From: Escherichia phage Phi1
Reading direction: 5' to 3' (one strand)
DNA length: 64,000 nt
Sequence record: EF437941
This document shows positions 699 to 63,526 of the stretch, piece after piece (within the stretch, counting starts at the first letter, position 1; each line of letters begins with the position of its first letter). A program made the translations under genes and the position numbers. The notes below the pieces were generated by a model. That model was not told the DNA's origin. It saw only the letters and a program-made list of their open reading frames with translations, and ran no database searches.

Positions 699-851
699 AT
701 GAGTAAGAAAGAAAACAGCTATGTTATGACTCGTAAGGAATACAACGAATTGATGTTAGCATTAGCTTATGCAATTATTCGTTCTGATCATGCAATTAAT
801 ATGGTAAACAAAGTTAACCGTAGCGTTGATAATGTTTCTAGGAAGAAGTAA
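699..851 (+). CDS. hypothetical small protein (50 aa)
   Basis: ATG at 699 preceded by strong RBS AAGGAGGA; translation MSKKENSYVMTRKEYNELMLALAYAIIRSDHAINMVNKVNRSVDNVSRKK; below the 60-aa cutoff of the ORF track. Confidence 0.45.
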   Translation: MSKKENSYVMTRKEYNELMLALAYAIIRSDHAINMVNKVNRSVDNVSRKK

Positions 852-889
852 GTTTATTTTGGAATCCTTCGGATTCCTTTTTCTTTTTG

Positions 890-897
890 TATAAATA
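890..897 (+). promoter_or_regulatory. T4-type late promoter (TATAAATA) for gene 24
   Basis: Exact TATAAATA about 38 nt upstream of the gp24 ATG at 935. Confidence 0.5.
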
Positions 898-43406: not shown

Positions 43407-44789
43407 TTACGCTGTCAACTCTTTTTCAAAAGATTTTACGATATACATGATAGTGCTCAATTCAGACGGCGCTACTGTTTCTGTGTAGCCATCCGGCATA
43501 TCTTCTTTTGATATATAGGAAGTTTTATCTTTCATTGCTTCCTTGATCTTGTTCTCTAAGTCTAAGATCTTTTGACCGTCTTGTAAAGTCAATTCATAAA
43601 AGATCTCGTGATCGAACTTAGAAACACGAGATTGGTTTCTCATTCGTTCTTGTGTTGTTAAATTGGTTATTCCAAACTTAACTGCCGTTAACGATTTATG
43701 TTTGTTTAGTTTCTGTACATAAAATGTTCCAGGTTTTATAGGTTGATAGCCCATTTTAGAACATTTTCTGCATCTTGTTCCAGATTGTACAAATTTACTA
43801 TATGTTGGTGTATACTCATGACCCATTTCACATGTAATTTTTAATCTTGTTTCGACCCCAGAATAGCTACCTCCACAAAATCCGTGAAATTTATTATTAC
43901 CCAACACGGAAATTATATTTTTTATTGCATCGTCTTCGTTCCTGCGACCACTACATACTCCACATCTATATCCACCATGAAAAAAATCACTAAACGCAAT
44001 ATTGTACTCGTGTCCATTATTACACGTCATATTAAGTCTCGTCCTTATATTTTCGTATTTTCCACCAACAAATCCATTGAAAATATGGTCTCCTTTGACC
44101 GAATTAATTCTATCTAACGCGGTAGTTTCTGTTAAACGCTTGGTCCCGCAGCATTCTGGGCATCTAGTTCCTTGAATAAAATGACCATACGTTGGTTGAT
44201 ATATGTGTCCATTATTACACTCTATTATTAACTTTGTTTTATGTGCACCAATGTAAGCACCACCAACAAATCCATGAAATTTTTCATCGACCAGTGCGTT
44301 GATGATATTTTGTATAGCTTCATCATTCGATTTTTTGTGTTTATTATTGCAAATTGGACATGTATTGACACCACCAATTATGCTGGAATAACATCTATGG
44401 TATTCGTGACCGTGTTCTTTACATTTTAATATAATTTTAGATGTCGATACATTTTTAAACTCTTCTGTCGTGAAACCCATAAACTCGCTATCTGTTAATG
44501 AAGATTTGATATCATCAATAACTTGTTCGGTTGATTTCTTTGCATTGGGTGCGCATAAACCACACTTGGTTTTTCTTCCAACTAGTGTTTTAATAGTTTT
44601 TGTGTGTGTTGTGTGTCCTTTATCGCACATTATACATACCCTTGTATCACATCCTTTCCAATCATCAACAAACCCGAGAAATTTGTAATTTATAGAGTGA
44701 CAATATTCGCGTACTGTATTCTCGTGAATTGTCGGTTGTTTTTGTCTCTTACCAACGCAAATGTCCTTAGCAAAGTATGTTTTCATCAT
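43407..44789 (-). CDS. multi-zinc-ribbon repeat protein with C-terminal GIY-YIG/T5orf172-like domain (putative mobile endonuclease-like)
   Basis: Four tandem ~50-aa modules of pattern hGF.GG.Y...L...C..GHEY...Y..F..G.RC..C plus an N-terminal zinc ribbon; C-terminus GTFYVQKL...LTAVKFGITNLTTQERMRNQ. Start set at the ATG pair with GGAGGA RBS (44787-44789). Confidence 0.55.
   Translation of the reverse strand: MMKTYFAKDICVGKRQKQPTIHENTVREYCHSINYKFLGFVDDWKGCDTRVCIMCDKGHTTHTKTIKTLVGRKTKCGLCAPNAKKSTEQVIDDIKSSLTDSEFMGFTTEEFKNVSTSKIILKCKEHGHEYHRCYSSIIGGVNTCPICNNKHKKSNDEAIQNIINALVDEKFHGFVGGAYIGAHKTKLIIECNNGHIYQPTYGHFIQGTRCPECCGTKRLTETTALDRINSVKGDHIFNGFVGGKYENIRTRLNMTCNNGHEYNIAFSDFFHGGYRCGVCSGRRNEDDAIKNIISVLGNNKFHGFCGGSYSGVETRLKITCEMGHEYTPTYSKFVQSGTRCRKCSKMGYQPIKPGTFYVQKLNKHKSLTAVKFGITNLTTQERMRNQSRVSKFDHEIFYELTLQDGQKILDLENKIKEAMKDKTSYISKEDMPDGYTETVAPSELSTIMYIVKSFEKELTA
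43413..43418 (-). promoter_or_regulatory. early promoter -35 element (TTGACA) with conserved leader
   Basis: Plus tgtcaa; leader tttcgatgtttgtattata; no obvious stem-loop. Confidence 0.4.
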
Positions 44790-45935: not shown

Positions 45936-46616
45936 TCAACTATTTGTTTCGGCTTTTAATTGAGATATTTCTTTACACTCTTTAACTACTTTAACAAATA
46001 ATGCTCTTGCTTTTGCGGCGTCAATAACAAGTAGTTTCTTGTACGCCTTCATTTTAACACTATAAGTTTGCCAAATCAAGTCTTTGGCTACCTTGTCGTG
46101 TTCGTCGATTATATTTAGAAAGCTATCTAACAACATAAACGACTCAAACGATATAATCCGATTTTGCAGTAGTTTAAATATACCGCTAGTTTCGGTTGCG
46201 GGATTGTATGTAATTAGCTCTTTAAGAGTAACCCCGCGTTTCTCGGAGAAGTATACCAGACTTTTAATGTCATCGTCAAATCTTGTTGCTGCATCGGTTA
46301 TCTTTCCTATGTATTCCATATAAAAGCCGTATGCGTCAACATCAGTGATTTCACCTACCCATGCATCGGTATTAGCTACCAGATTGCTTAGGAATAGGAA
46401 GTATAATTCTCTTAGATTGTACTTTTCCGCTAATTTTGCGAAATAATACTTATCTCTGCGTTTATTGAATGCGGCATCAGACAACCGCATCCTCCAATTG
46501 TATTTTACGCAATCATAACGCCCGTTCATGTGAGCTTTCATCATGCAATATAACATATACACAGATTTAGCATTAATTCGCATATCTGGATCTGGAGGAA
46601 GACGGTTTCTGATCAT
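45936..46616 (-). CDS. 59: helicase loader gp59
   Basis: GRYDCVKYNWRMRLSDAAFNKRRDKYYFAKL...NLVANTDAWVGEI...LLQNRIISFESFMLLDSFLNIIDEHDK matches T4 gp59. Confidence 0.9.
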   Translation of the reverse strand: MIRNRLPPDPDMRINAKSVYMLYCMMKAHMNGRYDCVKYNWRMRLSDAAFNKRRDKYYFAKLAEKYNLRELYFLFLSNLVANTDAWVGEITDVDAYGFYMEYIGKITDAATRFDDDIKSLVYFSEKRGVTLKELITYNPATETSGIFKLLQNRIISFESFMLLDSFLNIIDEHDKVAKDLIWQTYSVKMKAYKKLLVIDAAKARALFVKVVKECKEISQLKAETNS

Positions 46617-60959: not shown

Positions 60960-61328
60960 TCACTTAACAAAGATTTTCTTTAATGCTTTCAGGATCGTTG
61001 CTTCCGGCGCTTCTTCCGGTGGAGGAAGCAATTCTACCACTTCCTCTTCCAACTCGATATAGTCTACCAGATATTCTACATAGAATGCAAGTGCTTCCAT
61101 GAAATTAGATGCTACATCCGATTCGCCACACGCGCCCACATGCATTGTATAAACATCACTGCGATCAAGTTTGTGGATGCTTCCCAGATAGTTTCGGTTA
61201 TACCAGACTTCCCACACTTTCAACTTTCCTGTTTTGGTTGCTGTTTTATAATCCGTTTCATAATGATGCAATTGACGTTGCAAATCATTGATAATAACAC
61301 ATTTTTCGTAATTGTTTTGAATTTCCAT
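60960..61328 (-). CDS. hypothetical protein (122 aa)
   Basis: ORF with acidic, Pro-rich C-terminus. Confidence 0.5.
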   Translation of the reverse strand: MEIQNNYEKCVIINDLQRQLHHYETDYKTATKTGKLKVWEVWYNRNYLGSIHKLDRSDVYTMHVGACGESDVASNFMEALAFYVEYLVDYIELEEEVVELLPPPEEAPEATILKALKKIFVK

Positions 61329-61338
61329 GATGTAATCC

Positions 61339-61530
61339 TCACTTATCGTTAAGAAGTTCTAAAACTTTCTGCCGTACTTTGTCAATATTAGTTGATTCAA
61401 AAACTGTACGGTATCCCCAACTTTGACCGTATGATCGCGAGCAATCCCCATATCCCCATTGTTCAACCTGATAGTATTCAAGGAATGGGTGCTGCCGAAC
61501 TATGATACCATCGCGATTAAAAATTACCAT
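61339..61530 (-). CDS. hypothetical protein (63 aa)
   Basis: ORF immediately downstream of the 3 x 27-bp tandem repeat, with GAGGA RBS. Confidence 0.5.
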   Translation of the reverse strand: MVIFNRDGIIVRQHPFLEYYQVEQWGYGDCSRSYGQSWGYRTVFESTNIDKVRQKVLELLNDK

Positions 61531-61544
61531 AATATAATCCTCAC

Positions 61545-61625
61545 GTCAACAACTTATTTTCGGTTGTACTTGTCAACAACTTATTTTCGGTTGTACTTGT
61601 CAACAACTTATTTTCGGTTGTACTT
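61545..61625. repeat. perfect tandem direct repeat, 3 x 27 bp (gtcaacaacttattttcggttgtactt)
   Basis: Three identical head-to-tail copies at 61545-61571, 61572-61598 and 61599-61625; each holds a minus-strand GTTGTTGAC -35-like element. Confidence 0.85.
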
Positions 61626-61889
61626 CTGCCACTTTCGGTAATACTGCTTGTAATATTGTTTAATGTTTGGTGGTTCGTCACTATACATGTTATCAACCAT
61701 CATGTCAATAAGACCTTCCGGTGTTTGATAGTTACCCGCTCGAATGAGTTCCTTAATCAAAAGATCTTGTGTCGCTTTATACTTGACAATAACAACTGTC
61801 TTTTCTGCCTTTCCAATTCCGATCCGGTCGTTAGCTCTCATAGCATCCCACCAATCTTTTTTAAACTTCATGTTGTTAAATTTCATCAT
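61608..61889 (-). CDS. hypothetical basic protein (93 aa)
   Basis: ORF whose 3' end overlaps the third repeat unit. Confidence 0.45.
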   Translation of the reverse strand: MMKFNNMKFKKDWWDAMRANDRIGIGKAEKTVVIVKYKATQDLLIKELIRAGNYQTPEGLIDMMVDNMYSDEPPNIKQYYKQYYRKWQKYNRK

Positions 61890-62690
61890 TTAACCCTTCT
61901 TATATTCGCAAACATATTGAGTACCATAATCATAGCTAATGCGACCTTTCTCGATTACTTCAAAGCGGATTTCATCGTTTTCCCCTACCCACATTTTGTA
62001 CTCGTTGAAGTATCCTGCTACATCCGGTTTGCTCATACCAACAACCATATTTTTATATTGTTTGCTGTGTGTCAGATTTGATTTAAACACTTCGCGCTCA
62101 TCAACATATACGAAAGAAGACAATTCACCTTCGGTCATGGTCATTTTCAGCTTGCCGCCCTTGTTGCCATAAGTAGAGTTGCCATACAATGGATCTTTGC
62201 GGCTGTCTGTTTCAATACCATCAATGATTTTCCATGTAAATTTTGCAATGCACTGATAAGTGATAGATCCAGAGATTTTCTCTTCTTTCTTCTGTTCTTC
62301 CACCACTTTTGCTTCGTGTTTCGGTTGTTCTTCTTCAACCTTCACAGAAGTCTCTGAATCGCTTTCTGACGCGGTTTCTTCTTTAGGTAATACATTCATC
62401 AAGTTTTGGATTTGAGCGTTGTATACAGCCTCCAGTGGCTGAATCTGCCCGATATTGATCATTGTATCACGAACAGTTTTATTCCAGTTGCGTTGCTCTT
62501 GTTTAAGAGACGGATCAATCTTAACAGCCTTAACATATACCTCATGAAGTTTAGAATCAAGTGCTGAGATTGACTCATTAGCACAAATAAACTTCTCTGA
62601 TTTGGTAGTAGCTTTAGCGCAATCAAAGGACGCAGCATTAGCACCGAAAGTAGTAGCAGAAAGAACGATAGCAGCGATAATGTTTTTCAT
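61890..62690 (-). CDS. secreted protein with LprI/DUF1311-like N-terminal domain (putative)
   Basis: Signal peptide MKNIIAAIVLSATTFGANA; then FDCAKATTKSEKFICANESISALDSKLHEVYVKAV...QRNW resembling the DUF1311 two-Cys motif; acidic linker; C-terminal beta-rich domain. Confidence 0.5.
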   Translation of the reverse strand: MKNIIAAIVLSATTFGANAASFDCAKATTKSEKFICANESISALDSKLHEVYVKAVKIDPSLKQEQRNWNKTVRDTMINIGQIQPLEAVYNAQIQNLMNVLPKEETASESDSETSVKVEEEQPKHEAKVVEEQKKEEKISGSITYQCIAKFTWKIIDGIETDSRKDPLYGNSTYGNKGGKLKMTMTEGELSSFVYVDEREVFKSNLTHSKQYKNMVVGMSKPDVAGYFNEYKMWVGENDEIRFEVIEKGRISYDYGTQYVCEYKKG

Positions 62691-62720: not shown

Positions 62721-62755
62721 GAGAGTATCTTACTACTCCCTTAATCCGGTGTCAA
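62721..62755 (-). promoter_or_regulatory. PeSL-type early promoter cassette (imperfect hairpin)
   Basis: gagagtatcttactactccc (one mismatch in the stem); plus tgtcaa at 62750-62755. Confidence 0.5.
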
Positions 62756-63491: not shown

Positions 63492-63526
63492 GGGAGTATG
63501 TTAATACTCCCATTTCTTTACGTCAA
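63492..63526 (-). promoter_or_regulatory. PeSL-type early promoter cassette
   Basis: Palindrome gggagtat-gtta-atactccc (63492-63511); plus cgtcaa at 63521-63526. Confidence 0.55.

Follow-up and report, generated by a model that had tools for sequence, protein, structure and literature searches.

Strain-specific triplication, recent and probably neutral, of a truncated PeSL unit in an early-operon spacer of a Krischvirus

INTRODUCTION

Ahead of a small early gene of an RB49-like T4-type coliphage (Krischvirus), a 27-bp unit stands three times in a row without a mismatch. This raises the question of whether the array works for the phage, as stacked promoters, iteron-like protein-binding sites or a recombination hotspot (the roles proposed for it in a sequence-only reading), or whether it is the trace of a recent duplication with little consequence. 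The question bears on the promoter-early stem-loop (PeSL) cassette of RB49/phi1-type T4-like phages (Arbiol et al. 2010, PMC2839356; Comeau et al. 2014, PMC4122927). A complete PeSL has five parts: (i) the stop codon of the upstream gene in an AT-rich tract, (ii) a sigma70-like -35 element, (iii) a -10 element, (iv) a stable stem-loop, and (v) the Shine-Dalgarno (SD) sequence and start codon of the next gene (PMC2839356). PeSLs typically lie at mosaic boundaries (PMC2839356; PMC4122927). In the following, the window means the whole 64-kb stretch of DNA that was analysed.

RESULTS

Anatomy of the array and its operon

The array region consists of small ORFs in close succession, every one of them encoded on the minus strand. 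The array and the two ORFs that flank it are as follows.

61608..61889, minus strand: 93-aa ORF upstream of the array, RB49ORF259c homologue, PHROG 15915 (E = 2.5e-52)
61625->61599, minus strand: copy 1 of the 27-nt unit
61598->61572, minus strand: copy 2 of the 27-nt unit
61571->61545, minus strand: copy 3 of the 27-nt unit
61339..61530, minus strand: 63-aa ORF downstream of the array, RB49ORF258c homologue, PHROG 6957

The interval 61545..61625 (minus strand) is a tandem array in which a 27-bp unit is repeated exactly, 81 bp in total, and for which Tandem Repeats Finder gave a period of 27, 3.0 copies, 100% matches, no indels and a score of 162, confirming the perfect repeat that had been reported. 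It is the strongest tandem repeat of the window, the runner-up array scoring 48. With up to three mismatches allowed, the 27-mer has three matches in the window, all of them inside the array, against an expectation of 0 and with no match of any kind in the shuffle control (0/100 shuffles). The repeat stops sharply at both edges, and neither flanking base extends it: the base preceding the array is G versus C as the final base of the unit, and the base following it is G, where the unit starts with A. Microhomology across these edges amounts to 0 nt, both in the window and in the nearest relatives.

On the minus strand the unit reads AAGTACAACCGAAAATAAGTTGTTGAC, which in the coding frame corresponds to the codons AAG, TAC, AAC, CGA and AAA and the stop codon TAA, followed by GTTGTTGAC; it thus comprises the end of the 93-aa ORF (five codons, K Y N R K, with the stop) and 9 nt of spacer. 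Unit 1 begins with the last 18 nt of this ORF (stop at 61610..61608) and continues into GTTGTTGAC, so that the overlap with the 3' end of ORF 61608..61889 had been read correctly. Because copy 1 already includes the stop codon, the 93-aa product is unaltered by the triplication, and an identical protein is present in 47 blocks of public assemblies. Behind copy 3, the start signals of the 63-aa ORF (SD GAGGA at 61542..61538, ATG at 61530..61528) stand in the intact context GTTGTTGAC-GTGAGGATTATATT-ATG, exactly matching the relatives. The sole physical change is the lengthening of the intercistronic gap from 23 to 77 nt, in an operon whose gaps are otherwise no longer than 23 nt in relatives. 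Neither flanking ORF has a Pfam match or a PHROG-assigned function.

Two neighbouring ORFs, both on the minus strand, gave domain matches. The 266-aa ORF at 61890..62690 has a signal-peptide-like N terminus and matches Pfam LprI (lysozyme inhibitor, PF07007) at 25.3 bits versus a cutoff of 22, and variants of 252 or 272 aa take its place in relatives. The 122-aa ORF at 60960..61328, directly downstream of the 63-aa ORF, is assigned to Pfam PF26821 (Phage_T4_Y16F) by precomputed matches of identical public-contig proteins, and PF26821 was unreported by our own Pfam scan at E <= 0.01.

Two sites upstream of the array are relevant to its transcription.

62727..62755, minus strand: nearest upstream full PeSL-type early promoter, TTGACA-17-TAAGAT
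61680..61708, minus strand: sigma70-like site TTGACA-17-TATAGT within the 93-aa ORF, 11/12 consensus matches

The first of these has an AT-rich upstream region and a stem-loop that overlaps its -10, and the minus strand from there to the array showed no terminator-like site. Reading from 62755 to 62727, it likely drives the packed early operon through the array to about 59591. The second lies ~55 nt ahead of the array, and both of its hexamers are kept in all three diverged alleles of the 93-aa ORF; it is without the AT-rich upstream tract of PeSLs and scores only 2.2 bits in total with the position weight matrices (PWMs) described below. It could be an internal promoter, or its conservation could merely reflect a conserved LIDM...YS peptide motif. 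If the site is active, the array would form part of the 5' leader of the 63-aa gene transcript.

Copy number in relatives and age of the expansion

Identity of the array region is 99.1% with phage GEC-3S and 97 to 98% with many other phages, while over a 24-kb comparison the best deposited genome of the phage collection is only ~96% identical. GEC-3S, RB49 and JSE each carry the unit once. The gap between the 93-aa and 63-aa genes is 22 to 23 nt, versus 77 nt here, in all of 20 further independent assemblies from public data (isolates and metagenomes of human, pig and other origin, encoding exactly the same 93-aa or 63-aa protein), and the unit was single copy in 24/24 Krischvirus loci whose junction was read directly.

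Searches for the duplication junction gave the same picture. Megablast returned no match to it in the phage collection, and blastn on the same collection returned full-coverage matches that span just 27 nt of record and contain no duplication junction; these were rejected as duplications, one copy having been matched by both halves of the query. Nor was the junction found in IMG/VR, allele-tolerant patterns included. Metagenome contigs and GTDB genomes contained two 20-mer junction matches with unrelated flanks, which were judged to be due to chance rather than real arrays, about one such match being expected in ~6e11 bases by our own estimate. Other copy-number variants of the unit were likewise not found in the phage collection, IMG/VR, the metagenome contigs or the GTDB genomes.

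Among relatives the single copy varies at ~9 positions (TAC/TAT, TAA-G/TAG-T/TAA-T, GAC-G/GAC-A, TTGGC, CGA/AGA and a 1-nt deletion). The array shows no such variation between its three copies. Since the sequence is polymorphic as a single copy and uniform as an array, the expansion is recent, which bears out the earlier argument from perfect identity.

Promoter content of the unit

The motif AAGTTGTTGAC has 10 matches in the window, versus 0.07 expected by chance; three belong to the array and seven to full PeSL cassettes, and every one is on the minus strand. The proposal that each unit carries the A-tract and -35 part of the PeSL consensus therefore holds, the unit being identical over 11 nt to seven full PeSLs of the window. 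The likeness extends to the order of the parts: each unit has the stop codon of the upstream gene in an AT-rich tract (CGAAAATAA), followed by GTTGTTGAC(A/G), as can be compared with the full PeSL at 63526, which reads CGAAAATAAtttaaaataGTTGTTGACG. Like PeSLs, the array is also intergenic, lies in the hyperplastic region on the early-gene strand and stands at a mosaic boundary. The three units present the -35 hexamers TTGACA, TTGACA and TTGACG.

61598..61603, minus strand: perfect -35 TTGACA, new at the junction of copy 1 and copy 2
61576->61571, minus strand: second junction-made TTGACA, also new
61549->61544, minus strand: native -35 TTGACG of copy 3

The units were scored with PWMs trained on 24 full PeSLs of the same window. 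In the upstream/-35 block they reached 17.0, 17.0 and 15.1 bits, within the range of the real PeSLs (8.3 to 26.1 bits). The best -10 block at a distance of 16 to 18 nt, on the other hand, gave -12.9, -12.9 and -6.1 bits versus +4.7 to +11.4 bits in the real PeSLs, so that no usable -10 hexamer stands 16 to 18 nt from the -35 of any unit. Total scores were 4.1 to 8.9 bits for the units versus at least 17.7 bits for the real PeSLs, and this lowest real-PeSL total is reached at only 26 positions window-wide. A generic promoter consensus scan found nothing inside the array. The only -10-like hexamer, TAATTT, follows copy 3 and is present in all single-copy relatives; it could not serve the 63-aa gene, because it lies past the ATG of that gene. 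Minus-strand positions noted alongside the PWM scan included 27651, 27256, 26092, 22817, 20440, 62978 and 63526.

The stem-loop, the part of a PeSL with a terminator/attenuator role, is missing as well. The array contains no inverted repeat of at least 6 nt and no terminator-like site, and its RNA folds at -22.5 kcal/mol versus a shuffle mean of -25.1 (z = +0.78), no better than the shuffles. Rfam gave no match at E <= 1 over 61200..62000 on either strand. On these grounds (z score, inverted repeats and Rfam) a structured RNA or terminator was rejected as the identity of the array. Unlike a PeSL, then, the array is without the two defining features of the cassette, its -10 box and its GGGG...CCCC stem-loop, and its -35 is joined directly to the SD sequence of the next gene. 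Because both the -10 and the stem-loop are lacking, the units are three truncated, promoter-dead PeSL halves and not stacked promoters.

Iterons of plasmids and phages are direct repeats bound by an initiator, and the array resembles them in being three direct repeats with units of about 20 to 30 bp. It differs from them in that (i) it is not conserved, the unit being single copy in all relatives (24 of 24 loci), (ii) no initiator gene or AT-rich unwinding element adjoins it, and (iii) its units are partly coding sequence of the upstream ORF. Given the single copy in all relatives, a function as iteron-like protein-binding sites is unlikely. Taken together, a reading as functional stacked early promoters or as iterons is hardly credible, for all that every unit carries the PeSL upstream/-35 motif, given the -10 and total scores, the empty consensus scan, the absent stem-loop, the misplaced TAATTT and the single copy in relatives.

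Word searches of the literature found no tandem repetition of a PeSL fragment in the two PeSL papers (PMC2839356, PMC4122927), no mention in PMC4122927 of PeSLs that are duplicated, partial or degenerate, nothing on the ORF258/259 locus in PMC2839356, and no match for tandem repeats combined with Krischvirus in the paper library searched.

The single-copy element as a possible PeSL relic

The 3' flank of the array, GTGAGGAyTwTATTATG, equals the SD/start context found behind the full PeSLs at 43418 and 38556. The ORF259c/ORF258c junction looks like a PeSL minus its core (spacer/stem-loop, -10 and leader), with the -35 fused to the SD sequence. In favour of this reading are also the identity of the 5' part with seven full PeSLs and the complete promoter that the same small gene carries in the rV5-like phage FV3 (see below). 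This fused state is common to all krischviruses examined, and no full PeSL was found at the junction among them.

The 93-aa ORF occurs in three diverged alleles among krischviruses, namely, the window/GEC-3S, RB49 and JSE types. When about 61225..61985 of the window (minus strand) was compared with the RB49-type allele in 40-nt bins, identity was 45 to 85% in all bins upstream of the unit and 92 to 100% beginning with its first base (boundary at 61625). This step in identity places the unit exactly on a mosaic/recombination boundary. The suggestion of a recombination hotspot is compatible with this conserved patch on a mosaic boundary, but the position of the unit does not establish any activity of the array itself.

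DISCUSSION

Origin and probable neutrality of the array

We consider it probable that the array arose by a recent and strain-specific triplication, neutral in effect, the triplicated piece being a promoter-dead PeSL fragment in the spacer between two genes of the operon. The array shares with VNTR-type duplications its perfect head-to-tail copies, the difference of three copies here versus one in relatives that are up to 99% identical in the flanks, and intact coding sequences. It differs from them in two respects: the flanking microhomology usual for slipped mispairing is lacking (0 nt), and the expansion is found in one genome, with no series of 1, 2, 3 or more copies. Given this lack of microhomology, we infer that the first duplication would have been an illegitimate event rather than classical slipped mispairing. 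The step from two to three copies could then have followed by slippage or by unequal homologous exchange between the 27-bp copies, and a third copy may be easily gained in the highly recombinogenic replication system of T4-type phages, in which recombination reportedly needs only small patches of homology (<50 bp) (PMC2839356, citing Singer et al. 1982). It counts against this account that three copies cannot be reached in one simple step, but require two events or more, or else a single event of greater complexity. A PeSL at 45939, which has an 11-nt match to the junction GTTGACAAGTA, was considered as a template for the duplication and was dropped, the match being compatible with chance.

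The expansion left both proteins and the SD/ATG context as they were and created no functional promoter or terminator; since only the length of the spacer was altered, we infer that the array is likely neutral or nearly so. The 54 nt of additional spacer and the two extra perfect TTGACA hexamers could nevertheless have altered translational coupling or RNA polymerase occupancy.

Alternative explanations

This last possibility is developed in the alternative that the expansion is functional and tunes expression of the 63-aa gene and the genes that follow it, which we regard as unlikely. Two routes can be envisaged: (i) translational uncoupling by the longer gap, and (ii) a -35 decoy or roadblock, in which the three AT-rich/-35 modules would act as putative non-productive binding sites for sigma70 RNA polymerase within the early operon. 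In its favour, the upstream/-35 block of every unit is of PeSL grade (15 to 17 bits), the two junctions yield perfect TTGACA hexamers, the operon is otherwise tight, and the array would belong to a 5' leader if the candidate internal promoter at 61708->61680 is used. Set against this, the array occurs in this genome alone among the 24 loci and all collections searched, so that no conserved function can be claimed for it; the SD/ATG context of the 63-aa gene is unaltered; and no stable RNA structure was gained. The -35 element of sigma70 promoters is, moreover, insufficient by itself for stable open complexes.

A sequencing or assembly artefact, or a mis-resolved copy number (e.g., truly two, or more than three), is improbable. 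Such an origin would agree with the junction being present in no other public sequence searched, with the genome itself being absent from the deposited phage records searched (best ~96%), which leaves no independent copy for comparison, and with the tendency of perfect short tandem repeats to make cycles in small-k assembly graphs. The array of 81 bp is, however, shorter than ordinary reads; its flanks are colinear with relatives to the single base; and the junction k-mer GTTGTTGAC|AAGTAC cannot be invented by an assembler, requiring reads that contain the junction. From this behaviour of assemblers, at least two copies should be real, and we consider it very likely that at least a duplication took place.

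A further alternative, to which we give only a slim chance, is that the triplication is a footprint of the PeSL recombination mechanism itself, left by repeated mis-resolution at a relic PeSL on a mosaic boundary. Here the break or strand exchange would be targeted to the AT-rich/-35 part of a PeSL-like sequence, the part to which phi1 crossovers have been mapped (Arbiol et al., PMC2839356). If this were true, such arrays would mark active, sequence-targeted sites of shuffling and not random slippage.

Meaning of the array

As a probably neutral triplication, the array adds an instance of a known phenomenon, a tandem duplication polymorphism built from PeSL-derived sequence, and matters little in itself. 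It is a clear case of micro-duplication, very recent in date, within the hyperplastic early region of a T4-type phage, and the duplicated piece is a fragment of the very cassette to which gene shuffling in this region has been attributed. The 54-bp length polymorphism is a possible strain marker, and if the copy number should be unstable on passage, PCR across the locus would offer an easy assay of slippage or recombination in sequence derived from PeSLs. The case also cautions that promoters should not be annotated from -35-like motifs alone.

The 63-aa gene in other phage lineages

Homologues of the 63-aa protein with ~89% amino acid identity are found in rV5-like Vequintavirus phages, which are unrelated to T4-type phages. 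In the rV5-like phage FV3, the homologue (701..892) has its own complete promoter, TTGACA-17-TATAAT, and homology between FV3 and the window starts only at the SD/ATG of the gene. Judging from these matches, the small 63-aa ORF appears to have passed between phage lineages; because of its rV5-like homologues and the separate promoter in FV3, it fits the type of a small, mobile, promoter-associated ORF. The FV3 promoter was also considered as direct proof that a core had been deleted from the ORF259c/ORF258c junction, and was rejected as such, being a full sigma70 promoter that is not PeSL-like upstream. Among the further matches, four records named as Campylobacter phages (MG065658, MG065659, MG065666 and MG065690) encode an rV5-like homologue of the 63-aa protein with 87 to 89% identity and are ~135 to 143 kb long, as in E. 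coli rV5-like phages, which suggests that they are mislabelled or contaminating phages.
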